Positions 17,818 to 42,337 of a stretch of 64,000 nucleotides of DNA are shown piece after piece (within the stretch, counting starts at the first letter, position 1; the number at the start of each line of letters is the position of its first letter). Under the pieces are notes generated by a model. It was not told the origin of the DNA. It did no database searches and saw nothing but the letters and a program-made list of their open reading frames with translations. Origin of the DNA: a virus (lineage: Duplodnaviria; Caudoviricetes). A program made the position numbers and the translations under genes. The stretch is from IMG/VR virus record IMGVR_UViG_3300013426_000001, positions 1 to 64,000 of that record. One strand, given 5' to 3'.

Positions 17818-17825
17818 AAACAAAC

Positions 17826-17850
17826 AACGTCGCGTAAGCGGCGTTTTTGT
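17826..17850 (+). terminator. Putative intrinsic terminator
   Basis: aacgtcgc-GTAA-gcggcgtt followed by T run. Confidence 0.6.
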
Positions 17851-17879
17851 ATGATAAAAGTAGTAAAAGGAGAAAAATT

Positions 17880-18593
17880 ATGGCAACAACAACCAAAAAA
17901 GAAACCACCGAAGAAGTGGTAAAAGAAACAAAACCCGCCGAAACCAAAACGGCGAAACCCGACAACGTAGACGCGAAACTCGAAAAACTCACCGACCTTA
18001 TGGCGACTTTTATGCAAGGCGTTATGATGACCCAGGCGAATCAAACCGTCGCGCAGCAGTCCGTGGAAAGCCTTCATGGCGGAAAAATCAAAATCGTCCA
18101 CTTGGCGCAGATGGACCCGCAACTTGGCACGATAATTCACCTTTCCAACCTTGATGTCGGTATGACGAATTTCGGCGAAGAAAGACTTTTGACGATTCAG
18201 CAGTTCGAAGAGCTTTTGTCGAAGCACAGAAGTTGGTTTACGAAAGGTCTTTTGTGCGTAGCGAAAGGCTACGAAGAAGAGGCGAGAACTTACGGTGTAA
18301 CGACCGTTGACGAGTGTCCGATTGATAGCACGTTTATTAAAACGCTCGGTGATGTTCCGATGACAAAAATCGAAGAGGTTTATAACAGGCTTCCCGAATA
18401 TGGTCAGGAAAATCTTGTAAGTTATTGGCTCAGATGTGCTTATGAAGGAAACCCGAAATTCAGAGATATTCGCAGGGTTAAGTCGTTTAATGACATAACT
18501 GGCGGTAAACTTGAAAACTTTCTTGTTGAGCTTAATAGAAAAGTTGAAAGCGGTGTTCAGCAGAATACCAGACCGAACATTGTAAGATACTAA
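17880..18593 (+). CDS. Hypothetical head-module protein (YonA-like position)
   Basis: SD AAGGAG before ATG 17880; low-complexity N-terminus. Confidence 0.6.
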   Translation: MATTTKKETTEEVVKETKPAETKTAKPDNVDAKLEKLTDLMATFMQGVMMTQANQTVAQQSVESLHGGKIKIVHLAQMDPQLGTIIHLSNLDVGMTNFGEERLLTIQQFEELLSKHRSWFTKGLLCVAKGYEEEARTYGVTTVDECPIDSTFIKTLGDVPMTKIEEVYNRLPEYGQENLVSYWLRCAYEGNPKFRDIRRVKSFNDITGGKLENFLVELNRKVESGVQQNTRPNIVRY

Positions 18594-18608
18594 TTTAATT
18601 AACCAAAT

Positions 18609-18643
18609 AAAAGCCCCATTTCATTACACGATTTGGGGCTTTT
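18609..18643 (+). terminator. Hairpin / putative terminator
   Basis: aaaagcccca/tggggctttt inverted repeat. Confidence 0.5.
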
Positions 18644-18674
18644 GTAATAAAAAAAATAACGGAGGGGAACACCA

Positions 18675-19385
18675 ATGATTCAGTTCTCAGATATTTACGA
18701 GCGGACGGTTAATCTTATTGATGACCCCGATATAAACAGAGCTTATTTAACAAACACGATTGAATTTCAGAAAATAATGTACAACTTTCTCATCAACGGG
18801 CTAAGCTATATAACCCATCCAATAAAAGTGACCGACGCGCTTGCACAGTACGATAAACCGACTGGCGAGACAGAAGTCGGTGCTTGCGAAGCTGGAAAAC
18901 AGACTTATGAAGTAAGTATGGAAATACCCGAAGACGCAGATGTTGTATTTTACATAGACACGCCGAATAAAAAAGGCGTGTTAGTTAAACAACAAGCGGA
19001 AGCGACTTATGACGCAACCGACAAAACCGTGACTTTCGTAAAACCCGTAAGTGATGGCGAACAATATGAGATCGAATGGTACAAAGCTGGCGAATTTACA
19101 GCCGATTTTACACAGGCGGGTGCTGCAATAGGCTCGTCGATGACGAAGAGGGTTATCGAAATCCTCGCGAGAACAACGGTAATCGCTTGGGCGGAAAAGG
19201 AGCAGAACTTCTTGCTCGATATTCGCAATCTGCTTAATGATACCGATTTCAAACTTCATTCTCCCGCAAACTCGTTAAAGACAAAAACCGAATGGGTGAA
19301 TAGCCTTCAATTTGAGATTTACTCGTTGCAGAATAGGCTCGACTGGGATTTGCGGAACAGGAGCGTGAGTTGGTATGGATACTAA
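18675..19385 (+). CDS. Probable head-tail adaptor protein
   Basis: Neck position; QFSDIYE...DTDFKLHSPANSL pattern with a central beta-rich insert. Confidence 0.55.
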   Translation: MIQFSDIYERTVNLIDDPDINRAYLTNTIEFQKIMYNFLINGLSYITHPIKVTDALAQYDKPTGETEVGACEAGKQTYEVSMEIPEDADVVFYIDTPNKKGVLVKQQAEATYDATDKTVTFVKPVSDGEQYEIEWYKAGEFTADFTQAGAAIGSSMTKRVIEILARTTVIAWAEKEQNFLLDIRNLLNDTDFKLHSPANSLKTKTEWVNSLQFEIYSLQNRLDWDLRNRSVSWYGY

Positions 19386-27442: not shown

Positions 27443-27721
27443 ATGGCAGAATATTTATCTAAATACACTGGGAACAGAGTTGATTCTGCGGTTGGAATAA
27501 TTCCAAGTACGAAACCTACAGAGGATAGTGTTATAGTGGTTGGCTCTACTGGTGCATCAAGCTATAAACCTCTATCTCAAATTGAAGGGACGGATGTTGA
27601 GGCGAATTCTTCAGCATCTGCCACTCAAGATTTAAGTAAGTTAACAGTCGGCACTACAACATATAATTTAGCAATAAAATCAGCCGTTTTGAATGGCACA
27701 GTGCTAACGTTGACGATATAA
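27443..27721 (+). CDS. Minimal fibre adaptor (YTG-type N-module plus GTxLTLTI C-module)
   Basis: N-terminus matches 41354 gene; C-terminus matches 39688 gene. Confidence 0.65.
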   Translation: MAEYLSKYTGNRVDSAVGIIPSTKPTEDSVIVVGSTGASSYKPLSQIEGTDVEANSSASATQDLSKLTVGTTTYNLAIKSAVLNGTVLTLTI

Positions 27722-27731
27722 GGAGTTCACT

Positions 27732-29327
27732 ATGAGTTTAATAATTAATGGAACAGAAGTTACCGAAGTAAAAGTAAACGGGGTCTCTGTTACCGAGGTT
27801 AGAGTGGTTGCGAGCGGATCTTCTGATTACGTGGTAGTTTTTAGCACAGGCGGCAGTGATATTCCCGTAGCTGAGAGTTATACTGACTTTAGCATTGGTG
27901 ATTTTTACGAAGGCTCGTATATAAATGAAGATTGGGTGGATTATGGGTTGATTCCATATGATAAATTAACGCAAATTCAAGAAATATTATTTAATGGTAA
28001 GAAAGAAATAGTCTATTTATTCGATTCGTTAAATGCTCATTATAATTTTAATTACAGTGCGTTTGCAGATACATATGGCGGTGCCGACTTATATAAAAAT
28101 AATAATTGTAACACCCCTATCGGATTTTTAGATTCAATGAGTGTTGACAATCTCCCGACCACAATATATACCACATTCGACATCATAGATTCCCAAAAAG
28201 CGGCGGATAATGAGGGTGATTATTCGGATTATATCCCATGTTTTGGCGGAGCGCTTAAATATGGGATTACAATCTCTCCAAGTCTTTTTGGTTTGTCTTA
28301 TTCTCAAAAAGATTATTTTTATAATATAACTGAAGACCCCCTGGCTTTTAGCGATGGAAATAATATAGCATTAATTTGGATAGATGAGAATATGACAGAT
28401 GCGCGTTTAGGATTTATTCTTGACAAAATCACCAATGACGAAACGGGTTTTATAACTACCATAACGAGTGGAGTAAATCAAAAACTCATGATTTTGTTAG
28501 CAGGTGATGAAACGATTGAAAGTTTTAACCATTATGCTGAAATAGTATTAAACCACATTCCATATTTAAACAATCGACCCGTTGATTTTGGTATTTTACA
28601 AAAATATAACGCATGGGATGACGAGCTTAGTATTATTTTAACTGAAACGGCTACGAACGACTGTTTTTATATGTTCCCAGTTCCTTTAACTAAAACTTTT
28701 ATAGAAAGTCAGGGTTGGGATTGGAGTAATTATACTGGAAATAAAAACACCTATATCGCAAGAGCTTTAGACGTGTTATGGTACACCGATTCGAGCGGGC
28801 AGACACAATATTTCCACGACTTTTTAATTCGTTTTGACGATTTGGAAATTAACAAAAAGCAAAATAATAATGTGTTGAGTGCCATGACCAGTCGAGGTGG
28901 TAACCCGAAATTTTATATTCCGAATTATATATATAACATGGTTAATATGCTCGATTCGGCTAAGTCTCAAACGCCCGAACGCCCATTTGCGTTGTATACC
29001 GATCAAATTAACTTGGCGATAGAAGGCGATATGTCTGCTACCGATTGCACGGCTATTGCAAATACTTTTGACCATGTGTATTTAGGTTATCGTTTGAGTT
29101 TTTTGCTCAACCATAATATGGAGGCCGATGAGAATGAAGGGTCGTGGTCACCTTTATTTGCGAAGATGATTGCAACCGAGAAACAACGTTCAAATGCGGA
29201 TTCATTGACTAATGTTGAGTTTTTCTCGGCGATGAATACGGCATTATATGAAATTACTGCAAATAGCACAAGTGAGAGAACGTGGACGATCAATGTTGAT
29301 CGTGTAGTAATCGGTTCGCAGAGTTAA
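27732..29327 (+). CDS. Putative fibre tip / receptor-binding protein
   Basis: Short N-terminal LIINGTEVTEVKVNGVSV peptide followed by an AT-rich, aromatic-rich globular region. Confidence 0.5.
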   Translation: MSLIINGTEVTEVKVNGVSVTEVRVVASGSSDYVVVFSTGGSDIPVAESYTDFSIGDFYEGSYINEDWVDYGLIPYDKLTQIQEILFNGKKEIVYLFDSLNAHYNFNYSAFADTYGGADLYKNNNCNTPIGFLDSMSVDNLPTTIYTTFDIIDSQKAADNEGDYSDYIPCFGGALKYGITISPSLFGLSYSQKDYFYNITEDPLAFSDGNNIALIWIDENMTDARLGFILDKITNDETGFITTITSGVNQKLMILLAGDETIESFNHYAEIVLNHIPYLNNRPVDFGILQKYNAWDDELSIILTETATNDCFYMFPVPLTKTFIESQGWDWSNYTGNKNTYIARALDVLWYTDSSGQTQYFHDFLIRFDDLEINKKQNNNVLSAMTSRGGNPKFYIPNYIYNMVNMLDSAKSQTPERPFALYTDQINLAIEGDMSATDCTAIANTFDHVYLGYRLSFLLNHNMEADENEGSWSPLFAKMIATEKQRSNADSLTNVEFFSAMNTALYEITANSTSERTWTINVDRVVIGSQS

Positions 29328-29351: not shown

Positions 29352-30389
29352 ATGGCAAGGAAAACAGTTTATAATGAAGATCTGTCAAAAGAATGGCAGG
29401 TCGTAAATCCTAAAAATCAAAAATTACTCAAAGAGTTTATTCGTTATTGTGTGGCAAACGATAAAAGTCCACAGACGAGAGCTCAATACGAGTCACAATT
29501 AAAAATTTTCTTTTGTTGGAATTATCGCGAAAACAACGACAAATTTTTCGTCGACGTGAAGAAACGCGATTTTATCAACTTTTTCGGTTGGGGGCGAGAA
29601 ATAGGGTGGAGCCCGTGTCGTCTCGCCTCGCTCCGAGCGGCGTTGAGTTCGTTTAGCAATTATATAGAACGAATACTCGACGAAGACTACCCGACGTTCA
29701 GGAATCTTATAAAGGTTTTAGAACCGATTCACCTCGAACCCGTGCGTGAAAAGACGATTATCGACAAGGACGACATAATCGCGGGAATAGAGCGGCTGGT
29801 CAAGCTCGGCGAATATCAATACGCGTGCTTTTTAGCGCTCCTTTTCTCGTCGGGAATGAGGAAAGCGGAAGCGGCGCAGATGAAAGTTTCGTATTTTACG
29901 ACTAATCAAACGATCGTGTTTAACGGCTTAGCTTATATGACGCCGAAAATCAGAACGAAGGGGCACGGTGCGATGGGTAAACAGGTTCCGAGATACGTTT
30001 TCAGAGAGACTTTTGACAAATATCTCGATTTGTGGCTCAAAGAGCGCGAAAGACTTAACATAAAAATAGACGATTTATTCGTTATAAAAGGTGGTTACGA
30101 GGATTATCAGCCCGCGAAGGCGCAGAACTTTTCGCACTGGGCGGTTAAAATAGGCGAAATTATAGGTATAAATTCATTATATTGTCATAGCCTTCGACAC
30201 TCGTTTACGACTTATCTAAAAAGACAAAATTATCCGACTGACGTAATTCAGAAAATTCAGTCGTGGAGCAGCTCGGATTTAGTCGCGGTTTACGACGATA
30301 GAACCGAGAGCGAAGAATTAGATGGATTTTTCTCGAAATTGACAGACGGGAACAAGATAGAGACGGAGGTAGAAGATGGCAACAATTGA
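29352..30389 (+). CDS. Tyrosine recombinase (YomM-like position in the tail region)
   Basis: SGMRKAE (R), RTKG (K), HSLRH (HxxR), QSW (W replacing H), VAVYD (Y); SAM-like N-domain. Confidence 0.9.
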   Translation: MARKTVYNEDLSKEWQVVNPKNQKLLKEFIRYCVANDKSPQTRAQYESQLKIFFCWNYRENNDKFFVDVKKRDFINFFGWGREIGWSPCRLASLRAALSSFSNYIERILDEDYPTFRNLIKVLEPIHLEPVREKTIIDKDDIIAGIERLVKLGEYQYACFLALLFSSGMRKAEAAQMKVSYFTTNQTIVFNGLAYMTPKIRTKGHGAMGKQVPRYVFRETFDKYLDLWLKERERLNIKIDDLFVIKGGYEDYQPAKAQNFSHWAVKIGEIIGINSLYCHSLRHSFTTYLKRQNYPTDVIQKIQSWSSSDLVAVYDDRTESEELDGFFSKLTDGNKIETEVEDGNN

Positions 30390-31677
30390 CGATTTGGTTA
30401 CGCAGGGTTCGGTAATGCCCGATAATTTACGGTCTGATACCGCACGTGCGAGCCTTGAATATAAAAATCAATTAAAAAACGCAGGCGACATTTACGTCGG
30501 AACTGGCACAAAAATAACGAATGACGAAGCGGGCGTGACGAAGGAAATTTACGTTACCGAAGGCAAAAACATACAAACGGCACTGAATGAAGACATTTTC
30601 AGAGCTGGCGGAAAGAATAACATCGGATTAACTAATTCGGATCTTAGCGGTTATTCTAATAACATCGGAATAGGCAAAGATATTTCTGTTCAAACCAGCG
30701 ACAATATTATAGTCGGTAATTCGGTCACAAATTCGGGTACGAAAAGTGTAATTATGATTGGAAATAATTCCAGTACAGATAATTCGAGCATCACGATTGG
30801 CAATAGAGCAAAATCTATTGGTTATGATTCTGAAATGATTACAATTGGTAACGATGCTGAAAACAACGGTTATAGAGGGATTGTAATTGGACACGGTGCT
30901 TCTATAGCGTCAGGTATTGGTATGTTGACAACTGGAGTGGCGCTTGGTTTTAATGCCAAAGTAAACGCTTCCGAAGCCGTTCAAATAGGTACTGGAACAA
31001 ATTCGATTGCAAATTCTCTTCAGTTTAAAAAAACTCAAATCGTTGATGGTGACGGGCATATAAACGCTACAAAAATAAACGGGGTCTTGAGTACGGATAT
31101 TTTTGAAAGTGATGGGAAGGCAGTAAAAGATGCAACTAATGTTACTGGGTCAATTGGCGGAAGAGCTATTGATAATATATTTGTAGGGGAAACGGCGGTA
31201 GTAAAAAACGCCGAAAATCTTACAATGACAATAGGAGATCCTTATACGCCAGTTTATTTCACTCGAGGAGTACCTGGTGAATGTGCTGTGAAGTATTATA
31301 TGGGTAGGGGTTGGAATAGTAATAACAATCAAGTTCGAATCCCTTATTCAGATATTTCGTTTTATAATGACGGCAAGAAATGGTTGTTAATTACACTTCC
31401 AACCGTGTCTAATAAGGTTACCATAGTTTCGTCTGCCGCTACAAATAACATCGAAGATATTAAGGTTGTTCAGGCGACTGTAAATCATTACTTATTATCC
31501 CAATCTTATCAAACGACCCGTTCTTTTAGCGTCGCGGGGGTCGCCGATAGCACTTACACTATATCCGTGGATAGTCAAGGGGTCTTGATTAAGGGGCCTG
31601 ATGATAAAGAACAGGCTGAGTATTACAAGTATACTTTTCCGTATGTAATGGTTCAGTTTATCAAAGAGTCATGGTGA
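30376..31677 (+). CDS. Fibre/adhesin with YadA-head-like beta-roll repeats
   Basis: Repeats NIGIG, IIVG, IMIG, ITIG, IVIG, VALG, VQIG; N-module shared with 31703. Confidence 0.7.
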   Translation: MATIDDLVTQGSVMPDNLRSDTARASLEYKNQLKNAGDIYVGTGTKITNDEAGVTKEIYVTEGKNIQTALNEDIFRAGGKNNIGLTNSDLSGYSNNIGIGKDISVQTSDNIIVGNSVTNSGTKSVIMIGNNSSTDNSSITIGNRAKSIGYDSEMITIGNDAENNGYRGIVIGHGASIASGIGMLTTGVALGFNAKVNASEAVQIGTGTNSIANSLQFKKTQIVDGDGHINATKINGVLSTDIFESDGKAVKDATNVTGSIGGRAIDNIFVGETAVVKNAENLTMTIGDPYTPVYFTRGVPGECAVKYYMGRGWNSNNNQVRIPYSDISFYNDGKKWLLITLPTVSNKVTIVSSAATNNIEDIKVVQATVNHYLLSQSYQTTRSFSVAGVADSTYTISVDSQGVLIKGPDDKEQAEYYKYTFPYVMVQFIKESW

Positions 31678-31713
31678 GCGTTGGTATTAATCGAGGGCAA
31701 TTATGGTAGATAA
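31675..31713 (+). repeat. 39-bp direct repeat copy 1 (TGAGCGTTGGTATTAATCGAGGGCAATTATGGTAGATAA)
   Basis: Identical to 32630-32668; includes RBS and first codons. Confidence 0.9.
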
Positions 31714-32605
31714 TAAAAATACAATACCCGACAATCTCCGTTCCGATGTCGTGCGTAATTTAATAGAAAACAGAAACACGCTCGCCCAAAAGGGCGCGTT
31801 ATACGTAGGAACGGGTAATTCGCAGGAATTCGACGGCACTTCTTGCGCTGAAACGGTGGCTATAACGCCGCCCTCTCAAGTTGATTGTGTTCTCGTTTCC
31901 GATAATTCTCCTTCGGCTGAAGGAGGGTTGAAGTGGAAAACGATCAAACAAGCGGTTCAAGACGCTCGAAATAATGGACAGTCGATTGCGGTAGACGACG
32001 CGAATAATGCGGTTAGTTCTCAAAACGTTAGTACAACGATAAACGGAGTGGCGCTTAGTGAGATTTTCGAGAGCGACAAGAAAACCGCAAAACAAGCCAC
32101 ATTAGCGCAAAATATTGTCGATGGAGCAGTTACGGGATCCTCATTGAACAAACCGCAGCAATTAGTTTCGCATTCGATTTATATTAAAGCGTCGGATTAT
32201 TCAATGGAAGTTGCGATTCCGTGCGTTAACAACAGTAGTTCTTATGGGAATAACTTCTTAAATTTTTGTAATGATTATAAGAGTGGCTCGGTCGCTTACG
32301 CGGAAAATTTAACAGCGGGAGGACACTTAAATAGGGAAACCGATGGCGGCCTATTCGTAAACATTACACAAGCAATGAAAATGGAAAAAATATCGGCGGG
32401 TCAGGTTTTTAAATATAAAATTGATTTTGCTGGCGTGCGGTATAATTCAGAGAAAAATCGCATGGAAGGGTCAACTTTATCTTTGTATATACGGAATGGA
32501 GACGATGGAACCAAGGCTTATAAATATATAGAACCGACTTCTGGCGAACCAGTTTATACAATAAGAGACTTAGCTTATTCAATAACTGGGATTGAAAACA
32601 TATAA
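31703..32605 (+). CDS. Fibre/adhesin protein, paralog of 30376
   Basis: PDNLRSD...GALYVGTG N-module and INGVAL.EIFESD.K.AK.AT repeat. Confidence 0.65.
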   Translation: MVDNKNTIPDNLRSDVVRNLIENRNTLAQKGALYVGTGNSQEFDGTSCAETVAITPPSQVDCVLVSDNSPSAEGGLKWKTIKQAVQDARNNGQSIAVDDANNAVSSQNVSTTINGVALSEIFESDKKTAKQATLAQNIVDGAVTGSSLNKPQQLVSHSIYIKASDYSMEVAIPCVNNSSSYGNNFLNFCNDYKSGSVAYAENLTAGGHLNRETDGGLFVNITQAMKMEKISAGQVFKYKIDFAGVRYNSEKNRMEGSTLSLYIRNGDDGTKAYKYIEPTSGEPVYTIRDLAYSITGIENI

Positions 32606-32629: not shown

Positions 32630-32668
32630 TGAGCGTTGGTATTAATCGAGGGCAATTATGGTAGATAA
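32630..32668 (+). repeat. 39-bp direct repeat copy 2
   Basis: Identical to 31675-31713. Confidence 0.9.
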
Positions 32669-33764
32669 AAAATATAGAAGTGAATACACGGGGGAAGAAA
32701 TCGACGCCGCCGTGACCAAAATCAATGCCCTTGATCTGAACAACTATTACGATAAGTCGGATATTGACGCGGAGCTCGACAAAAAACTCGACAAATCCGC
32801 AGCCGAAGCGACTTATTACAACAAAACAGAAATTGATGATCAAGGACATTTTGAAAACGATACACCAAACGCTCAAGTATCGGTCGGAAATCTCGCGGCT
32901 GGAACGAAGCTCGCGGGGCTTTCCCTTAAAACGATTTTGAAGATGATGGTGTACGGGGAGCGGTCTTACCCCGAACTTACGGCGCCGTCGTTTGGTTATA
33001 CGCTTAACGGAGCGAACTTCGGGATGTGCGGAGCGGCTTATGCGCTTAGCGGCGTGCTCACTTTTGACAGAGGGCTTATCAATCCTGCTTATGGCACGAG
33101 CGGTAAACGTGCTGGCTTACCGTACCGTTACGATGTTGGTGGAAACCAAATCGATAGCGAACTTACGGAACAGCCGTTTAGTTACGCGTATACGATTTTG
33201 GGACCTGGCGAAAACGAGGTGAAAATCGACGTTTATTACGCGCAGGGCGAACAACCGCTTGATAGCATTGGAGCACCTTATGGAGCGCCTTATCCCGCTG
33301 GCTCGATAGAAAAGATGATAACGGTTACGGGGCTTACGGCTTCGTTTAGCGGTATTGACGGGCAAGAACCGACTAAAGATACTTTCCCTGCCGAACTTAT
33401 CCCGTTTGATAGTAAAGATTTTGAAGAGAGCGGTCTTTTCGGAGATGGGAGTGAAATTTATGGTTATCAAGTGGCGACGCCTGGAATTACGACTGCGCAA
33501 GACGTACAAATCATTTTGTTACCTGACGGCGTGGATATTTACGGAATTCAAAGTTGGAACGTTTTATGCGGTGGCTGGAGCTGGTTTTACGGCGAAACCG
33601 CGCAGGAAACGATGGCGGCTAACACGTGGATTAAAACGGACGAGGTTGTATCGAAAGAGATTGACGGTGTTTCGGTGAATTATCGCAAATACAAATTCAA
33701 TACCGAGGATTACGGTTTGATGGACGAAAATTATTTTAGATTCTTTCTTAAGGAGGTCGAGTAA
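32658..33764 (+). CDS. Fibre-chain protein (YTG N-module, Ig-like C-region)
   Basis: SEYTGEEIDAAV; GLSLKTILKMMV...P.L region resembles 34366 gene. Confidence 0.6.
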   Translation: MVDKKYRSEYTGEEIDAAVTKINALDLNNYYDKSDIDAELDKKLDKSAAEATYYNKTEIDDQGHFENDTPNAQVSVGNLAAGTKLAGLSLKTILKMMVYGERSYPELTAPSFGYTLNGANFGMCGAAYALSGVLTFDRGLINPAYGTSGKRAGLPYRYDVGGNQIDSELTEQPFSYAYTILGPGENEVKIDVYYAQGEQPLDSIGAPYGAPYPAGSIEKMITVTGLTASFSGIDGQEPTKDTFPAELIPFDSKDFEESGLFGDGSEIYGYQVATPGITTAQDVQIILLPDGVDIYGIQSWNVLCGGWSWFYGETAQETMAANTWIKTDEVVSKEIDGVSVNYRKYKFNTEDYGLMDENYFRFFLKEVE

Positions 33765-33766
33765 AT

Positions 33767-34345
33767 ATGGGCAGGATTAGAGGTAGTTTTATAACGAGTA
33801 ACAATTACGAAGTTAAAAAAACGGCGCCTTTCGACGCCCGTATGCTCGTTAAGAAGAAATCCGACTTAACAGACCCGAGTTCGTGGAGCATAGCGGGAAG
33901 TTATAACGGTATGATCGTTGCGGTTGGAAACGACCCCGAAAAGGCGAATAATGGCTTATACATGCTTACGGATGTCGGGAATATAGATTCGCTGAGTTCG
34001 TGGATGAAGTTCGCGGAATTGTCTGATTTAGAGGCGATGAGTGCGAATATCCAAAACTTAACCGAAGAATTAGGCTTGGTAAAAGCCGAGCTCGACAAAA
34101 AGCAGGATAAACTTATTGCGGGCAAAAATATTATAATTGAGGATAACGTGATTTCGGCTACTGGCGAGGCTGGTGGCGGAAGTAGCGCTATTCAAGTGGA
34201 CAATCTTCCTGAAACTGGGGAAGAAGATACTATTTACTGTGTTAAAAATGACGGTTCGCTCTATATGTGGAACGAAGGCGCGTGGGTTTGCTACGGCAGA
34301 GATTACGAGCGTTTAACTATGTTATTGGGCGGATCGGCGAATTAA
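33767..34345 (+). CDS. Fibre-chain protein (PxDA N-module, LGG C-terminus)
   Basis: APFDARMLV...YNGMIVAV; KQDKLIAGKNIII; ends LLGGSAN. Confidence 0.6.
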   Translation: MGRIRGSFITSNNYEVKKTAPFDARMLVKKKSDLTDPSSWSIAGSYNGMIVAVGNDPEKANNGLYMLTDVGNIDSLSSWMKFAELSDLEAMSANIQNLTEELGLVKAELDKKQDKLIAGKNIIIEDNVISATGEAGGGSSAIQVDNLPETGEEDTIYCVKNDGSLYMWNEGAWVCYGRDYERLTMLLGGSAN

Positions 34346-34365
34346 ATTTTTTAAAGGAGAAGAAT

Positions 34366-35622
34366 ATGGCAGACACAACTCTTCAAACTACGATCATTTT
34401 AAGAAATGACGTGACGGCGAATTGGGCTAATTCGACACTTGTTCTCAAAAAAGGCGAAGTGGCTATCGACACCGAGAAAAACATTTTCAAAATTGGTGAT
34501 GGCGAAAAGACCTTTTCGCAAATAGACAAATATTTTGCGTCGTTCGATGAAGTCGTTAAAGCGATTAACGAAGCAACGAAGAATCTTCATACGGCTGACG
34601 TATATGAAGCAGAAGTCAATCTTGGCGCTGACAAACTCGCGGCGCTTAAAGCATTGGCGACTAACCCGTTCAAAGGCGATTTCGGTATTGTAAAAGAAAA
34701 ACTCTCACCCGAAGGCAAGTATCAGTACACGGCGTACATCTATGACGGCGAAAACTGGGCGGCGATGGATGGCAACTATGACGCGGAAAACGTTTATTTT
34801 CAAAAGGACATTACGATAACTGCGCCTATTGGTGTTCAGACGATTCCTTCGAGTGGCTCTAAAACCCTTGCTACGACTGGCAAAAACCTTAAACAGGTTT
34901 TCGATATGATAGTCGCAGAAGAAAAGAATCCGAGCACGACTCAACCGACCGCTACGCTTAACTCGAGCAATATCGGAGCAAAGGAAGTTGGTACAAACAT
35001 CGCGATCGCTTACTCGTTTGCGACCAACGCTGGCTCTTATACTTACGGACCCGCTACGGGTGTTACGTTCTCTGACTATGAAGCGACATTCAATGGCGAG
35101 ACACTTACTGGCGCTACGGGCACGTTTGCTTCCATGCAGGTTATCGATGACACCAACCTTTCGATTAGCGGTAAATGCTCGTCGAGTGAAGGCGCTGTTC
35201 CTCTTACTAACCTTGGCAACCCCTATGAAACGGGTAAAATCGCGGCAAAAAATTATACACCGAGCAGAGGCACGTTGACTGGCTATCGTGGCTGGTTCTA
35301 CGGCTATTACAATGGCGACAATGCAATTGCAGCTCCCGCTTCAATTACTTCTGCTCAACTCAGAGCGTTTGGCACGAAAACGAGCTTCCCGACGACGATG
35401 AATACCACGAAGATGCAGCAGATGTTCTTCGCTGCTCCCAAGGGTAAAGTTTCGAGCGTTGCGATTTCGAATGCAGTTAACGGAGCTCCGTTGACAGTTA
35501 CCAAAGGTTCCGCTTCTGTTGAAGGCGCGAACGGCTATACGGCCGCTGAATACGATCTTTTCTACGTTGCTAACGCGGTTGCGGAAGGCGGCGACTCGAA
35601 ATGGAATATCGTGGCGAAATAA
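34366..35622 (+). CDS. Fibre-chain protein with Mtd_N-like N-domain
   Basis: SD AAGGAG; IILRND..ANW....LVLKKGEVAI...FKIGDG. Confidence 0.7.
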   Translation: MADTTLQTTIILRNDVTANWANSTLVLKKGEVAIDTEKNIFKIGDGEKTFSQIDKYFASFDEVVKAINEATKNLHTADVYEAEVNLGADKLAALKALATNPFKGDFGIVKEKLSPEGKYQYTAYIYDGENWAAMDGNYDAENVYFQKDITITAPIGVQTIPSSGSKTLATTGKNLKQVFDMIVAEEKNPSTTQPTATLNSSNIGAKEVGTNIAIAYSFATNAGSYTYGPATGVTFSDYEATFNGETLTGATGTFASMQVIDDTNLSISGKCSSSEGAVPLTNLGNPYETGKIAAKNYTPSRGTLTGYRGWFYGYYNGDNAIAAPASITSAQLRAFGTKTSFPTTMNTTKMQQMFFAAPKGKVSSVAISNAVNGAPLTVTKGSASVEGANGYTAAEYDLFYVANAVAEGGDSKWNIVAK

Positions 35623-35640
35623 TAGGGAGGAAAATATAAT

Positions 35641-37512
35641 ATGACACGTGAAGAATTTTTTGAAAAATTAAATAACGGCGCAAAGTGGGACGTTGGTGTT
35701 GCGATTAATCGTACTAACCCTGTTCCTCTTGATGCTAATTCTGTTTTTGAATCCCTTGACGCGCTTACGACTTATGCGACCACCAACGCGCTTGCGTACC
35801 CTGGTCAAGTTGTTGCGGTTTTGGGAGAAGACGAAATTGCGGCGTACCTGATTAAAACGACTGGCGCTGGCGCGTTGATAAGCAAACTTGCAGCTTCGAG
35901 TGCGTCTGGCGATATCTCTGCGGACGTTGAAACTCTTAAAACGCAGGTTGCGAACATCATAAATGGTACGCAGGTTGTTGGCGCAGCTACCAAAGCTACG
36001 CAGGATGGCGAAGGAAACGTTATCTCGACGACTTATGCTACTGCGACTGCGCTTGATGGCGTAAAGACGACTGCTGAAAAAGGCGTTACTGACGCTGCGG
36101 AAGCTAAATCTGCTGCTGACGCCGCCAAAGAAGCTGCCGACGCGAAGGTTGGCGCGGTTTCTCTTGCGACTGGCACTGAAAACGGCACCGTAAAACTCAC
36201 GGTTGATGGAACTGATACCGAAGTTGCGGTTAAAGGACTTGGCTCTGCGGCTTATACTACGGCCGACGCTTATGACGCGGCGGGAACTGCGAAGGGATTG
36301 GTTGATGAGCATAACGTTTCGGCCGAAGCGCACTCTGATATTAGAGAATCTATAACTGCTCTTGCAGAAAAGGTCAGCGGACGTGCAACGGGTTATGTTT
36401 TCGCGAACAAAGAAGACCCGAAATATACCGAAGCGATTGGTAAAACTGGTTCTTTCGTCGTCGGTGATACAATTTATTTCACAGACGCAAACATTCCTGA
36501 CGAATGGGTGACTGCTGTTAATGAAAGTGAACCGTTCTACAACTTCCAGGAAATCGAAACTGAAAAGCCTAATCTTGACGGTTACGTTAAAGACACGAGA
36601 ACGATTAACGGCAAAGACTTAAAGACTGATATTGTACTCGGCGTTGCCGATATCGAGGGTGCGGCTTCGAAGACCGACGTTTCGACTGCTAAGACCGAAG
36701 TTCTCGGCGAAGTTGACACGAAACTTGAAGGCTACGTAAAAACCACCGAGCTTGACGGCAAAGGTTATATAACTAAAGACGTTGACGATCTTACGAACTA
36801 CACGACCACTGCTGACCTTAACACGGCGCTTGGCAACAAACAGGATAAGAACGCGACTCTTACGGCTATCGCGGCTCTTACGGGCGAAGGTTTGGTTAAG
36901 AAAACCGCTGACGGCGTTGAACTTGACACGAATGCGTACATAACCGAAGCGGCACTTACCGATTACGCGAAGAGTGCTGACGTTACGAAGGAAATTAACG
37001 AAGCGGTTGCTGATAAACAGACAGCCGATCAAGTAAACGCGCTTATCGCGGCTGCTACGATTCAGGGTTCGAAGGTTGAAGGCGCTGTTGCTAATGCGAC
37101 GACTGCTGCTACTGCGAACAAAGTCGCGAACAAACTTACGATTGGCTCGGAAGAATATGATGGCTCGGCTCCTGTTGAAGTAACCGCTGCTACTCTTGGT
37201 GCCCTTACCGAAGTTCCTGCTGCTACCGCTGAAAAGATTGGTGGTTTCAAGCTTCTTGGCGAAGAAGAAACGGCTGAAGAAACGGCTACTCATCGCATAG
37301 TTAAACTCGATGCTCACGACCACGCTTATGTCGACGTTCCCGCCGCGATGGTTTATAGTGCAAAAGCTGATGGCGGTCTTGAACTTGAAGACGGCGCGTT
37401 CGGAATTAAAGCACTCGGCGTTAAAGATTCGATGATCGAGAATGTTAGTACGGATAAGTTCGTTCAAGGGACAAACCCGTTTGTTCTCGATGGTGGTAAC
37501 GCAAACATTTAA
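35641..37512 (+). CDS. Long fibre protein (PxDA N-module, DGG C-terminus)
   Basis: VPLDANSVF...YPGQVVAV; Ala/Thr-rich shaft; ends VLDGGNANI. Confidence 0.7.
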   Translation: MTREEFFEKLNNGAKWDVGVAINRTNPVPLDANSVFESLDALTTYATTNALAYPGQVVAVLGEDEIAAYLIKTTGAGALISKLAASSASGDISADVETLKTQVANIINGTQVVGAATKATQDGEGNVISTTYATATALDGVKTTAEKGVTDAAEAKSAADAAKEAADAKVGAVSLATGTENGTVKLTVDGTDTEVAVKGLGSAAYTTADAYDAAGTAKGLVDEHNVSAEAHSDIRESITALAEKVSGRATGYVFANKEDPKYTEAIGKTGSFVVGDTIYFTDANIPDEWVTAVNESEPFYNFQEIETEKPNLDGYVKDTRTINGKDLKTDIVLGVADIEGAASKTDVSTAKTEVLGEVDTKLEGYVKTTELDGKGYITKDVDDLTNYTTTADLNTALGNKQDKNATLTAIAALTGEGLVKKTADGVELDTNAYITEAALTDYAKSADVTKEINEAVADKQTADQVNALIAAATIQGSKVEGAVANATTAATANKVANKLTIGSEEYDGSAPVEVTAATLGALTEVPAATAEKIGGFKLLGEEETAEETATHRIVKLDAHDHAYVDVPAAMVYSAKADGGLELEDGAFGIKALGVKDSMIENVSTDKFVQGTNPFVLDGGNANI

Positions 37513-37576
37513 AACACGGCAAGGGGAGTTTAACTACTCCCCTTCACTAAAATAAAAATATAGAGGTCAAAATAAT

Positions 37577-39547
37577 ATGGCTGATACAATATTAAAAACT
37601 AGAATTTCTTTAAAGTATGATACACTGGCGAATTGGACGGCGAGTGAATTAGTCCTTAATAAAGGTGAAATAGCGATTGCGGAAATTCCCACGTCTAATC
37701 CCGAACTTAAACAGCATCCTCCTGTGATGTTTAAGGTTGGTGTCGGCAATAAAAAGTTTTCCGAACTTGATTGGGCTTCGGGGCTCGCTGCCGATGTTTA
37801 TGGCTGGGCGAAGGCTGCTACAAGACCCGCTTATAAATATGGAGACGCCGATTTAACGGGTTTTGGAACTGCGGCCGCTAAAAATGTCGGCGATTTCGAT
37901 GCTGCTGGTGCGGCTTCTACGGCGGAAAAGAATGCAAAATCTTATGTAGATGAAAAGATAGCGGCGCTTCCCGCTCAGGCTGAATATACGCTCGAGAGTA
38001 ACGAAGATGGCAAACTGAGCCTTATGAAAAATGGCGAAGCTGCAAGTACTGTTGAAATCGAAGGTTGGGCGGAATTGCTCACTTCCATTGCAGCGAAATA
38101 CACGAAGCCCGAAGGCGGAATTCCGAAGAGCGATTTAGCTTCGGGGGTTCAGACTTCGTTGGACAAAGCCGATTCTTCGGTCCAATCTGTTGCGTTGGCG
38201 AGTGGTACGAATAACGGCACGTTGAAACTTACTGTTAACGGTACGGCGACTGACAACATCGCGGTCAAAGGGCTCGGTTCCGCTGCTTATAAAGCAGATA
38301 CGGCTTTTGATGCCGCGGGTTCCGCTGCTGCTGTTTTAGGCGAAGATGGCGATGCCGCAACTAAAAATACCGTATATGGAGCGAAGGCTGCCGCCGCGGC
38401 TGCGCAGAAAACCATCGATGATTATAAAACGTCAAACGATGTAGCGCTTGCGGCTGTAAAAAAGACAGCCGATGCCGCGCAAACCTCGGCGCAGGTTGAT
38501 GCAAAGATTTCGACACATAATACTTCGAGTACGGCGCACGATGATATTCGTCAAGAAATACAGGGGCTTTCCGAGAAGTTAAGCGGTAGGACTACGAACT
38601 ACGTTTATAAAAACAAAGACGATGCGGCTTATAAAGCGGCGATAGCAAAAGCTGGAAGTTTTATTGTCGGTGATACGATTTACTTCGAAGACGACAACAT
38701 TTCTGATCAATGGGTTGTCGCGGTAAACGCTGCTTCTCCGTTCTATACGTTCAAAGACATCGAAACCGAACATCCTTCGTTCGATGGCTACGTAAAGGGC
38801 ACTGGACTCACTGCTGAAAAATTCGTTCTTGGTGCTGCTGGCTCGAATGTAAAGGCGAGTACTTATGGTGCTTCTACGACTCTTACGGCTACCGATAACG
38901 CAAATCTCCCCACGTCGAAAGCTGTTGCCGATTACGTTAGCAATCAGATAAGTGGTAAACAGGATACGATTAAGGCTGGAACTCACGTAACTATAGGAAC
39001 CGATGGCGTTACGGTTAACGCTGCTTGGCCGACCGCTTCTGATGCTGGATATGAAGGTATTGGCAAAGTTGGTACGGTTACTGGCGTTAAGATGAACGGA
39101 GCTGCTGCTGCGGCGACCTCTGGTGTTGTAGATCTTGGAACCGTTCTTACTGATGCAAGTGCGTTTGATGCTGCTGGCACAGCTGCAGATGCTGTTAGTA
39201 CGCACAATAGTTCAACAACTGCACATGCTGATATTCGCACAGAAGTAGGTAAAAAGCAGGATATTATCAATGCGAATAACAAACTTTCTGCTGATTTTGT
39301 TAGCGGGCTCGGTGCTGCAGCCAAAAAAGGCGTGGCCTCCTCTGTTACTGCGGCTGGAACCGATTTGCCGACTGCTGGTGCCGTCGCCTCTTATGTTGGA
39401 ACTGAAATCGGCAAGATATCTATTCCGACCGTAAATAACGCGGCTCTTAAAGACACCTCGGGTGCGACGATATTTACTGCGAATGCTTCGGAAGACGTTA
39501 ATATTTTATATATTGACTGTGGTAATTCCACTGGTTGGGAAGCGTAA
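37577..39547 (+). CDS. Long fibre protein (Mtd_N-like N-domain, IDCG C-terminus)
   Basis: ISLKYDT.ANW...LVLNKGEIAI...FKVGVG; shares VKGLGSAAY and AHxDIR...GDTIYF blocks with 35641. Confidence 0.7.
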   Translation: MADTILKTRISLKYDTLANWTASELVLNKGEIAIAEIPTSNPELKQHPPVMFKVGVGNKKFSELDWASGLAADVYGWAKAATRPAYKYGDADLTGFGTAAAKNVGDFDAAGAASTAEKNAKSYVDEKIAALPAQAEYTLESNEDGKLSLMKNGEAASTVEIEGWAELLTSIAAKYTKPEGGIPKSDLASGVQTSLDKADSSVQSVALASGTNNGTLKLTVNGTATDNIAVKGLGSAAYKADTAFDAAGSAAAVLGEDGDAATKNTVYGAKAAAAAAQKTIDDYKTSNDVALAAVKKTADAAQTSAQVDAKISTHNTSSTAHDDIRQEIQGLSEKLSGRTTNYVYKNKDDAAYKAAIAKAGSFIVGDTIYFEDDNISDQWVVAVNAASPFYTFKDIETEHPSFDGYVKGTGLTAEKFVLGAAGSNVKASTYGASTTLTATDNANLPTSKAVADYVSNQISGKQDTIKAGTHVTIGTDGVTVNAAWPTASDAGYEGIGKVGTVTGVKMNGAAAAATSGVVDLGTVLTDASAFDAAGTAADAVSTHNSSTTAHADIRTEVGKKQDIINANNKLSADFVSGLGAAAKKGVASSVTAAGTDLPTAGAVASYVGTEIGKISIPTVNNAALKDTSGATIFTANASEDVNILYIDCGNSTGWEA

Positions 39548-39687
39548 AACTAAACAAAACTACCGCACGGGGCGAGGGTTGCTTCGCCCCTACGCGGAAT
39601 TAAACACGAAAACACAGCCGCCTCTGGAATGACGGGGCGACTTACTTCCAAATTTTGGAAATGATAAATTGAAGGAGGTTTTTATAT

Positions 39688-40974
39688 ATGGCTGGTGAAA
39701 AAGAAAGTTCGAGTACCACAACTAAACTCAAAACAAGAATAAGACAAAAACACGACACGGAGACAAATTGGCTCAAAGCTACCACTTTTGTGCCGCTCGA
39801 TGGTGAATTGATTATATATGACGTCGATGATACACACTCGACCCCGAGATTTAAGGTTGGTGATGGAATACAGGTAGTGGGCGATTTACCGTTTTTGGCG
39901 GATGGTATTAATTCTCAGTATCTTAGAAATAATTATATTCCTATTAAAGAAATAACTTCAGGGTCTTTTATAGTTCCACAAATAGGTTATAATAAAGAAA
40001 TTTATTGGTTAAATTCAGATGTAAGTGTAGTCGAACAGTCTTTAGCACAAAGATACACAGATGGTAGATTGAGAGTTGGAGATCCTGTTGAAAATAATGA
40101 TGCAGTAAATCTTCTGTATCTGGATAATCATTTTGTAGCAGGCAACGGTATCTCTATCGACAAGAAAGCCAATGAAGAGAAAGTCGAGATTAAGATTGAC
40201 CCAACGAGAGAAATTAAAGTATCGACGTTACGAAGCGTACCAAGCGGTCAAACAGCACCTTTTATATATATTGATTCGACGATAGGTATAACGTATAAGC
40301 CTGACGCAAGCACCCCAAGTAGGATATTTACATTTCCTTCTTCAGACGGTACGCTTACGACGCAGAATTCGTTCAAGACTATTAATGGCAATTCAATCGT
40401 TGGTTCTGGAGATATTACTATTTCAGGCGGAAGTGGAGATGTTACTGCGGCTGGGGATAATACTTTTACTGGTACAAATGTTTTTACTAGTAATACTCTC
40501 GAAGTTGGAGATGGAAAAGATAAAATAAGTGACAATGGCAAAGCGGTAATTATTTCTGCTACAGGTATAAAAATTTATGATGGTTTAGCTGGTAGAAATT
40601 ACACTGTAAAATTTCCTACATATGAAAAAGGAAATGGAGGCACATTAGCTACTTTAGCAGATGTAACTGGTGATATTAGTAGTTCTGCTAACAATACATT
40701 CACAGGTACTAACATCTTTAAAAAATCAGTAAGTTTTGATTATGGACTGTTAGAAATAAGGAATGTATCTACTTCTTCCAGTCCAAATACGGATGGTATT
40801 ATTTTTAAAGATTCATCAAATAATACTTTCTGCTGGTATCAAGGTACTAAATGGACTACTAGTACTGGAAAAGTTATTCAGTTACCAACCTCCGCGGGTA
40901 CACTCGCGCTTACTTCAGACATTAAAATCAAATCTGCCTCACTCGATGGCACAACTTTAACGCTTACTATTTAA
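39688..40974 (+). CDS. Fibre protein (Mtd_N-like N-domain, GTTLTLTI C-terminus)
   Basis: IRQKHDT..NW....FVPLDGELI...FKVGDG; NTFTGTN repeats; PxxxGTLA motifs. Confidence 0.7.
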   Translation: MAGEKESSSTTTKLKTRIRQKHDTETNWLKATTFVPLDGELIIYDVDDTHSTPRFKVGDGIQVVGDLPFLADGINSQYLRNNYIPIKEITSGSFIVPQIGYNKEIYWLNSDVSVVEQSLAQRYTDGRLRVGDPVENNDAVNLLYLDNHFVAGNGISIDKKANEEKVEIKIDPTREIKVSTLRSVPSGQTAPFIYIDSTIGITYKPDASTPSRIFTFPSSDGTLTTQNSFKTINGNSIVGSGDITISGGSGDVTAAGDNTFTGTNVFTSNTLEVGDGKDKISDNGKAVIISATGIKIYDGLAGRNYTVKFPTYEKGNGGTLATLADVTGDISSSANNTFTGTNIFKKSVSFDYGLLEIRNVSTSSSPNTDGIIFKDSSNNTFCWYQGTKWTTSTGKVIQLPTSAGTLALTSDIKIKSASLDGTTLTLTI

Positions 40975-41012: not shown

Positions 41013-41351
41013 ATGGATATCGATAGAATAATCTTATACGTTATAATCGGTGCGCTTATTTTGGGCGCCCTGGTTTATGCAATCATTTGGATTATAAAAT
41101 TCTGCAAAATGAGCAAAGACGAAAAAATTAAATTGCTCAAAACTTATCTCAAAGGGCTTGTCGCTCTTGCCGAACAAGAAATAGTCGGAAGCAAACGTGG
41201 TGAAGAGAAACTCGCGATGGTTGAAGAGTATTTTAACAAAAAGGCGCCCGTTTTATACAAAATGGTACTTTCGGCTCTTGGCAAAGAAAACCTCAAAGAA
41301 CTTATCGAGGAAGCACTCAAAGAAATTAAAGATTCGTTCGGAGGTTGCTAA
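41013..41351 (+). CDS. Probable holin (single N-terminal TM)
   Basis: Hydrophobic IILYVIIGALILGALVYAIIWII then LVALAEQ...GEEKLAMV...LIEEAL pattern. Confidence 0.65.
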   Translation: MDIDRIILYVIIGALILGALVYAIIWIIKFCKMSKDEKIKLLKTYLKGLVALAEQEIVGSKRGEEKLAMVEEYFNKKAPVLYKMVLSALGKENLKELIEEALKEIKDSFGGC

Positions 41352-41353
41352 TT

Positions 41354-42337
41354 ATGGCGGAGTATTTATCTAAATTTACTGGCGCTCGTGTGGATTCGGC
41401 GGTGGAGAAAATCCCCGCCACCTTACCCACCGAAGACAGTAGTATAATCGTCATCAGCAAAGACGGAACGACGGGCTATACGACGCTTTCGAGTTTAGGC
41501 GCTGGAGACGTTGTTGCGGCTGGGAATAACGCTTTTACGGGGAACAACACGTTCGCTGGAACTTCGACGTTTAACGGTGACGTGACGATGGCGAAAACGC
41601 CGACCATTCCTGGATATGCGAACTTGGCAGGCGAGAATACTTTTACTGGTAGCAATACTTTTAGTGGGGATGTTACGATTTCTAAAATTCCCAATATAAC
41701 GGGTTATGCGGCGTTGGCTGGCGCTAACACTTTTACGGGGTCAAACACGTTCCAGCAAGACGTTACTATAGGAACAACGGCGCAATATGTTTCGATTACT
41801 TCAACAGGTATTTCGAAAAAGGCGAGCGATGCAAGCTCGGTACTTAGTTATGATTTACCTAATAGTGCGGGCATTCTTGCGTTAACTACGGATATTGCTT
41901 CAGCGGTTGCTGGTTTGGCGAGTACGGGTTCTTCTAATAGCTTTTCGGCAAACAATTATTTCGCCTATAATAAAGGAATAGATATCGGTGAAAAATCAGT
42001 CGCGCCGCCGTGGCTTGCGATTAGAAATGATAATACGGTTGTTCAGGATAAAGTCGCATTCTTTTATCACGATGGCAATGCGGAAAACACCCAAAATGTG
42101 GCGTATTTCCCAGCTCAAAGTGGCGTTATAGCACTTACTCCGATGGCGGCACCGACTGAAACAAGCTTCGTTACTTATGGTACAGATTTTAAACCCCAAT
42201 GGGTTAAAGGAAGCGATATTCCCGACGCGAAGGCGGTTACGGCGCTTGCTGATAGACTGGATAAAATCGAGACGCTCTTGGCTCCTGGTTTAGCTGCGGA
42301 GAACGCAAGGGCTATTTATTGGTTGCTTGCTGAATAA
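41354..42337 (+). CDS. Fibre protein (YTG N-module, NTFTG repeats)
   Basis: MAEYLSKFTGARVDSAV; three AGxNxFTGxNTF repeats. Confidence 0.65.
   Translation: MAEYLSKFTGARVDSAVEKIPATLPTEDSSIIVISKDGTTGYTTLSSLGAGDVVAAGNNAFTGNNTFAGTSTFNGDVTMAKTPTIPGYANLAGENTFTGSNTFSGDVTISKIPNITGYAALAGANTFTGSNTFQQDVTIGTTAQYVSITSTGISKKASDASSVLSYDLPNSAGILALTTDIASAVAGLASTGSSNSFSANNYFAYNKGIDIGEKSVAPPWLAIRNDNTVVQDKVAFFYHDGNAENTQNVAYFPAQSGVIALTPMAAPTETSFVTYGTDFKPQWVKGSDIPDAKAVTALADRLDKIETLLAPGLAAENARAIYWLLAE

Follow-up and report, generated by a model that had tools for sequence, protein, structure and literature searches.

How do the products of adjacent fibre genes find their places in a single tail appendage? The question is raised by a stretch of 64,000 nucleotides (hereafter the window) that forms the first 64 kb of the complete 138.5-kb genome of a gut phage with direct terminal repeats (IMG/VR record IMGVR_UViG_3300013426_000001; Duplodnaviria, Caudoviricetes). 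Six consecutive genes in it, named here like all others by the position of their first nucleotide (32658, 33767, 34366, 35641, 37577 and 39688; Table 1), encode fibre-like proteins whose C-terminal ends appear to be matched to the N-terminal modules of the proteins encoded next. An earlier reading of the bare sequence, the original prediction, had proposed that the six dock head-to-tail in gene order through a small set of orthogonal connectors. We favor, with a probability of roughly 0.65, the reading that each forms a trimeric segment of a tail fibre (or set of fibres) built from several proteins, the segments being joined by a few reusable connector pairs; physical binding (modelled for one pair), a single linear chain and the role of the anchor are the parts of it that we infer.

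Under this reading the segments would be made separately and joined non-covalently, the C-terminus of one to the N-terminus of the next. In the first kind of junction (pair A), two hydrophobic residues, (D/N/L)-(G/C)-G and a few small residues would lie on the first β-strand of the next Mtd_N β-prism, an arrangement that would be used at 33767/34366, 35641/37577 and 37577/39688. In the second (pair B), an immunoglobulin (Ig)-like β-sandwich that follows an LK..M.V region would receive a PLDA or PFDA N-module (32658/33767 and 34366/35641), and in the third (pair C), a ..NGT.LTLTI end would receive an M.(L/I)I.NGT start (27443/27732, and possibly 39688 in trans). The YTG..(I/V)D start most likely anchors the whole to the tail or baseplate, and the order of assembly would most simply be that of the genes, as in gp34-37 of phage T4.

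The tail that precedes Mtd_N starts

The translations bear out the motifs on which the original prediction was built, namely LLGGSAN, VLDGGNANI, YTGEEIDAAV, LK....M.V, P(F/L)DA and GTTLTLTI, each at its expected place; the tail of 37577 likewise stands at the end of its protein, its actual form (YIDCGNSTGWEA) being four residues longer than had been quoted. As proposed, each of the three tails comes directly before a gene with an Mtd_N-like start. For 34366, which begins at the ATG at 34366 and not at the GTG at 34267 of the longest open reading frame (ORF), relatives beginning at the same place, the domain is significant in Pfam (PF18454, 38.2 bits at a cut-off of 26.3, residues 10-47). The starts of 37577 and 39688 are below Pfam significance; they align to Mtd_N with W20, G30-E31, K53, G55 and G57 kept (N-terminal core W..(N)P.L..GE...(E.D)....K.GDG) and are matched, at 3.5e-5 and 5.5e-4, respectively, by our own hidden Markov model (HMM) of 73 IMG/VR Mtd_N starts. 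Moreover, a profile that includes both matches the HylP structures at 4.5e-14. All three of these window junctions, where the tail falls in the last ~12 residues and the next gene opens with Mtd_N, display the DGG-tail/Mtd_N connector, a class defined in this analysis and not a published family. Relatives of the small segment 2 protein end in ..IKIINGGTANE (in locus L075) or ..VIDGGNAEE (in protein P0121).

At the remaining two junctions, the LK....M.V plus Ig-like genes 32658 and 34366 are followed by the P(F/L)DA...Y.G..VAV genes 33767 and 35641, with the modules present in both members of each set. The claim that all five junctions fit stands, and only 4 of the 720 permutations of six genes satisfy them all. 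The complete genome (138.5 kb) encodes three Mtd_N starts, two PLDA/PFDA starts and three anchor modules, and immediately upstream of every Mtd_N start stands one of the three fibre-gene tails. A loose form of the tail pattern, searched genome-wide, also matched a 109-residue ORF that lies away from the fibre island (104686-105015), as well as two short ORFs on the minus strand; the latter two we took as spurious.

The adjacency statistics across phage genomes that had been suggested as a check show the tail/Mtd_N pairing to be enriched. A sample of at least 119 IMG/VR loci was drawn by a fixed degenerate DNA pattern inside the Mtd_N core only, with the neighbours ignored, and a tail was counted as [LIVMFYW][DN][GCSA]G plus 1-9 residues to the end; these and all later IMG/VR counts are for the loci listed. 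The tail is borne by 55 of 110 ORFs upstream of Mtd_N starts (50%) versus 18 of 805 other ORFs (2.2%; odds ratio 44, p 1.5e-41), and after dereplication it precedes Mtd_N in 30 of 67 (p 9e-25). Seen from the other side, an Mtd_N start lies at most 450 nucleotides (nt) after 58 of 67 tail-bearing ORFs versus 54 of 1262 tail-less ones (odds ratio 144, p 6e-60).

Searches of GenBank tell the same story. With the 34366 start as the query, tblastn recovered Mtd_N genes in phages of Streptococcus, Stenotrophomonas/Xanthomonas, Nitratiruptor, Synechococcus, Arthrobacter, Ralstonia and Mycobacterium, and the upstream gene was tail-ended in 7 of the 10 junctions that we read. Tails before Mtd_N include ..IILDGGNQ in the Streptococcus prophage 315.1 (upstream of HylP), ..VIFDGGGA in DLP4, ..IIDGGGASNA in NrS-1 and ..VLDSGGA in S-CBS3, as well as ..VIDGGGP, ..SIDGGAP and ..LIIKAGGAES; Shambre1 shows the pair twice, and in BPP-1 the tail-fibre protein Bbp9 ends in ..ADLGGIA directly before mtd. 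The bodies that carry these tails are unrelated, being collagen-like, Tal-like or tiny adaptor proteins, and the tail is frequently doubled (..LDGG.A.S.Y......IDGG.A). Between two and five successive links are seen in loci L039, L075, L102, L140, L144 and L146. On the evidence of sequence, then, the connector pairs are real, conserved far beyond the present phage and statistically tied to adjacency.

A mundane source of such an association would be the Shine-Dalgarno sequence of the next gene, read through as GGNGG codons near the stop, which would make the tail an artefact of translational coupling. Its GG codons do end 3-13 nt before the next start in 44% of the listed tail junctions, and the stop and start codons overlap in 315.1, DLP4 and S-CBS3. 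However, the remaining 56% are 14-264 nt from the start or overlap it, the stop-to-start gaps in the window are 20, 64 and 140 nt, the association holds specifically for Mtd_N genes (the odds ratio of 144 above), and the flanking hydrophobic residues, the Asp and the frequent doubling of the motif would be left unexplained. We find this explanation scarcely credible and rejected it. A DNA-level recombination site at the junctions was likewise discarded, there being no DNA repeat common to the three pair A junctions.

A structure model gives the pairing a possible physical form. Three copies of residues 525-623 of 35641 (its last 99) were modelled with three copies of residues 1-95 of 37577, and the interaction prediction score from aligned errors (ipSAE) was 0.82 (0.82-0.83 over three runs) versus 0.00 for the best control; in the calibration of the tool, 58 of the 80 solved complexes and 2 of the 110 mismatched pairs attained this mark. 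Between the three runs at least 95% of the contacts coincide, and the partner predicted local distance difference test (pLDDT) is 70-72. The predicted interface sets 35641 residues 604-623 against Mtd_N residues 1-16, 19-25, 28, 33 and 61 of 37577, with L616, D617 and G618 placed on residues 5-13 of the first strand. By sequence, the Protein Data Bank (PDB) holds no like complex and HylP is present alone (2C3F, 2YVV, 6X3M), because of which recall of a solved complex by the model is unlikely though possible. For this one pair the model supports binding, and the predicted contact of the 35641 tail with the Mtd_N of 37577 runs via the tail itself and the first strand.

Ig-like ends, PLDA starts and the open end of the series

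The PLDA/PFDA family comprises 1232 representative clusters at E<=1e-3, and in 149 of the best 150 the module stands at the N-terminus. A DGG-type tail ends 60-71 of the best 150 PLDA proteins of these 1232 clusters, typically as ..VNKLVQT.GD.LILNGGNA. When contexts were chosen by the PLDA start alone, the upstream gene ended in an alignable Ig-like domain in four of four, and the same junction occurs in the crAss-like phage cr4_1 and in MT835470. Loci L144 and L146 repeat the whole order of the window (tail, Mtd_N-Ig, PLDA-tail, Mtd_N-Cys tail, Mtd_N), and L143 runs from an Ig-like end to a PFDA...Ig protein and on to another PFDA start. The C-terminal domains of 32658 and 34366 align with each other and with those of other phages, and both proteins match the same region of the cr11_1 tail protein (E 2e-5 for 32658, over residues 179-329, and 1e-3 for 34366). 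A single 787-aa protein of cr11_1, a crAss-like phage, unites the LK..M region with the Ig-like domain and the PLDA module, and such a fusion is the form expected of parts that would be neighbours in an assembled fibre.

The fusion can also be turned the other way: the motifs might be left over from gene fission or from two-gene cassettes that were inherited as such, with module boundaries that recombination favours, and each protein would attach to the virion independently. The cr11_1 protein indicates that splitting of a longer gene has occurred, and the fibre genes are paralogous (E 6e-47 for 35641 and 37577; 2e-10 for 34366 and 37577). Yet the tails are carried by upstream proteins of unrelated kinds in phages of Gram-positive and Gram-negative bacteria, cyanobacteria and actinobacteria, no DNA-level repeat marks the three pair A junctions, and the splitting of a continuous trimeric fibre would itself demand docking of the halves. 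With the model placing the tail on Mtd_N and its controls at 0.00, adjacency without contact strikes us as very improbable.

Two observations concern the wider PLDA family. Among P0121-P0270, a Trp motif (..LTWGSF, ..VTWKEV, ..AWDWVEL) takes the place of the DGG tail at the end of many PLDA-start proteins, and in MT835470 (L019, 8001-12472) such ends are followed by genes starting with ..SIVFIKDS.EI(Y/W)THG.FYA; the Trp-motif end and the ..SIVFIKDS start likely constitute a fourth connector class. The internal PLDA-like copies in P0267 belong to a different repeat protein and are uninformative as a fused-chain candidate.

Pair C is seen at 27443/27732 in the window, in L005 (471 aa, then 263 aa), in L007 and in L039; among 1560 junctions, 4 of 11 ORFs with the C-motif meet 4 of 8 with the N-motif, where 11 x 8/1560 = 0.06 would be expected. 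The original prediction had the series closing with GTTLTLTI. This probably does not hold: the same end stands on 27443, which is followed by 27732 with its M.LI.NGT start, and the chain is probably open at 39688. The latter carries the ..LTLTI end, yet a holin gene follows it, and therefore any pair C partner of 39688 would act in trans.

The YTG..(I/V)D start recurs in three genes (27443, 32658 and 41354), and such modules probably anchor three fibre types, of which 41354 probably forms a separate short fibre. The holin gene lies between fibre genes and directly before a gene with the anchor start both in the window and in L007 (6657-6986), a placement that suggests rearrangement by recombination between anchor modules.

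One fibre or several

Several points count against the six-segment reading. Pairs B and C each rest on few, partly related cases, and the direct alignment of 32658 to 34366 is weak (36 aa, E 0.007), LK....M.V being found in both. The IMG/VR sample is limited by gene calling with a simple ORF rule. About half of its listed Mtd_N-start genes, for example those of T4-like cyanophages, have no upstream tail, and therefore Mtd_N would also dock otherwise or to non-adjacent partners; in GenBank the upstream tail is missing in RSP15, cyanomyophage S-P4 and Brujita gp5. In L142 a ..LNCGGATD tail is followed by a non-Mtd_N gene. The ipSAE of 0.82 came from our own alignments and a hexamer, a set-up outside that of the calibration. 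Finally, with pair A used thrice in one phage, the gene order need not equal a unique order of assembly.

The last point opens the way for the same connectors to build not one six-part fibre but branched or alternative shorter fibres with mixed tips; for instance, the 33767 tail could take any of three Mtd_N proteins, and 39688 and 27443 could compete for 27732. Tails, Mtd_N starts and anchor modules each number three in the genome, 27443 and 39688 have one and the same end module but the matching gene follows 27443 only, L102 has a pair of paralogues with a common N-module of which only one continues the chain, and in L142 the matching Mtd_N gene is non-adjacent. Branched systems have precedents in the Klebsiella phages with anchor-and-branch receptor-binding proteins (PMC6872550) and in the hyperbranched fibres of phiKp24 (PMC9700779). 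There too, modular receptor-binding proteins join via dedicated N-terminal docking parts and module exchange alters specificity; however, the domains are others (a T4 gp10-like branching domain and conserved N-terminal peptides), the products are branched sets of tailspikes rather than serial C-to-N chains, and neither the DGG tail nor Mtd_N is reported. Speaking against such branching in the present phage, gene order is conserved, and tail and Mtd_N subtypes match position by position in the window, L005, L007, L144 and L146, which suggests some partner specificity. On balance we regard branched or alternative fibres as unlikely, if still to be reckoned with. Of the proposal that six proteins dock head-to-tail through connectors, what survives is that the pairs recur and that one is predicted to bind; the single linear fibre is the more conjectural part, as branching or alternative partners would be possible with pair A used thrice.

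The pairing of subtypes follows a simple pattern in those five cases: LLGG tails go with Mtd_N subtype 1, L(D/N)GG with subtype 2 and xCG with subtype 3, the Cys tails accompanying the Mtd_N subtype with F.PL.GE.I.Y. It offers a hint, from few lineages, of sub-specificity (orthogonality) within the pair A class. Relatives of the phage keep the core of 368, 192, 418 and 623 aa and differ in the distal bodies (656, 669 or 765 aa and 428, 459 or 471 aa) with the same junction types, and this swapping of distal bodies fits an exchange of modules at the connectors.

How much of this is new? Genes 34, 35, 36 and 37 of T4 lie in that order. The long tail fibre gp34-gp35-gp36-gp37 is a multi-protein assembly in proximal-to-distal order (PMC3004832, PMC5537660), and the total size is comparable, ~2900 aa in T4 versus 2685 aa here. 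However, none of the present genes has a Pfam or PHROG match to the gp34, gp35, gp36 or gp37 families, and the junctions of T4 are unique and form one fixed set, while here a few types, readable from short motifs, serve repeatedly in a single phage and also in unrelated ones.

Other precedents concern the Mtd_N domain itself. The β-prism of Mtd is presumed to attach it to a tail-fibre protein (PMC10743442), and the ..ADLGGIA end of Bbp9 upstream of mtd in BPP-1, which has the same start domain, fits the rule; a search of the literature on Bbp9 with Mtd found nothing relevant. BPP-1 differs in having one junction and no chain, and its diversity-generating retroelement and C-type lectin tip are not present here. 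Sequence searches led to HylP as the sole relative of the Mtd_N start with a solved structure, and the 315.1 gene that lies upstream of HylP is Tal-like; the structures show HylP alone, and the HylP body is an enzyme. Our literature search turned up no account of Mtd_N being partnered by a C-terminal tail, nor of junction types forming a reusable set. The claim to an undescribed grammar can accordingly be kept for the sequence code, which is apparently new, and not for head-to-tail multi-protein fibres in gene order, which are known from T4.

More tentatively, with chances somewhat below even, a small docking code, readable from sequence, might be common to tailed phages and determine the partner of each fibre segment. 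It would include the DGG tail with Mtd_N, the Ig-like end with the PLDA start, ..LTLTI with M.LI.NGT and the W-tail class, along with finer sub-specificities such as that of Cys tails for one Mtd_N subtype. If this were true, the order and branching of fibres could be read from the genome, and receptor-binding modules would have been swapped at the joints by evolution. No part of a phage genome is harder to interpret than its fibre genes, which are mostly "hypothetical", and establishing how many proteins make up a fibre usually needs cryo-electron microscopy. The tail-to-start rule, with odds ratios above 40, would let annotators link genes into fibres, find the distal receptor-binding protein and spot adaptors like 27443. 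It would also supply a partner for the widespread Mtd_N, with its hitherto presumed role in attachment, and explain how relatives exchange distal fibre bodies while the joints stay. For studies of the evolution of host range in gut phages, the connectors give defined boundaries.

The fibre island and its neighbourhood

On the + strand, head and tail genes are followed by the fibre-like island (~25.2-42.3 kb), with fibre genes on this strand only, and then by the gene of a 3462-aa tape-measure protein (Table 1).

Table 1. Coordinates in the window of the six fibre genes and of associated features
Feature	Coordinates	Strand	Description
92-aa adaptor	27443..27721	+	anchor module YTGNRVDSAV joined to the same end module as 39688 (..AVLNGTVLTLTI)
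531-aa gene, start MSLIINGTEV	27732..29327	+	candidate partner of the ..LTLTI end (pair C); possible distal tip
Tyrosine recombinase	29352..30389		Phage_integrase, E 6.7e-16
Fibre-like paralogues	30376..31677 and 31703..32605	+	shared PDNLRSD start, E 2e-8
50-nt direct repeat	31675..31724 and 32630..32679		94% identical
Fibre segment 1, 368 aa	32658..33764	+	anchor YTGEEIDAAV 32685-32723; LK..M.V ~32913-32960; C-terminal Ig-like β-sandwich ending ..VNYRKYKF..FRFFLKEVE
Fibre segment 2, 192 aa	33767..34345	+	PFDA N-module 33767-34006; coiled coil; small C-domain; tail LLGGSAN 34322-34342
Fibre segment 3, 418 aa	34366..35622	+	Mtd_N 34393-34506; LK..M.V ~34882-34929; Ig-like C-domain
Fibre segment 4, 623 aa	35641..37512	+	PLDA N-module 35686-35925; Ala-rich shaft; tail VLDGGNANI 37483-37509
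Hairpin	37521..37544		perfect 9-bp stem
Fibre segment 5, 656 aa	37577..39547	+	Mtd_N subtype 2 37577-37786; Cys tail YIDCGNSTGWEA 39509-39544
Fibre segment 6, 428 aa	39688..40974	+	Mtd_N subtype 3 39727-39891; GD.TAAG.N.FTG repeats; end module ..SASLDGTTLTLTI 40948-40971
Holin	41013..41351		
Third anchor-module gene, FTGARVDSAV	41354..42337	+	shares repeats with 39688, E 4e-15
Tape-measure protein, 3462 aa	42960..53348	+	PhageMin_Tail domain, residues 1782-1997

Megablast of the region against GenBank phages gave no DNA match, and the module-level protein matches are to human-gut crAss-like phages and one unclassified faecal phage. In a tblastn search of phages the 33767 module found matches and the N-module of 35641 none; close relatives (77-100% identity in the 623-aa protein) are common in ENA and Logan metagenome assemblies. 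The confinement of the PhageMin_Tail domain to a short part of the tape-measure protein leaves a very long N-terminal extension.

The presence of a tyrosine recombinase within the island raised the possibility of an invertible, shufflon-like fibre switch. It was set aside: inverted repeats are weak (16-30 nt at 70-94%) and the fibre genes all lie on the + strand. In L005 and L007 the recombinase is found downstream of the fibre chain, i.e., on the other side of the island. The two fibre-like paralogues next to it in the window share a start unlike all the connector classes, and in L005 a 199-aa gene of this PDNLRSD kind directly follows the recombinase. The 50-nt direct repeat brackets gene 31703 and spans the ribosome-binding site and first codons of both 31703 and 32658.

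A scan for promoters and terminators found nothing relevant except the hairpin after 35641, which lies in the 64-nt gap before 37577 and is the sole strong stem-loop between the six genes. In L034 (274-2791) and L020 (the cr4_1 genes), otherwise conserved fibre genes have in-frame stops under translation table 11, which suggests either recoding of a stop codon or assembly errors. Finally, in L007 a radical SAM gene and a gene for a Polbeta-type nucleotidyltransferase are inserted in the fibre island (16979-19018).

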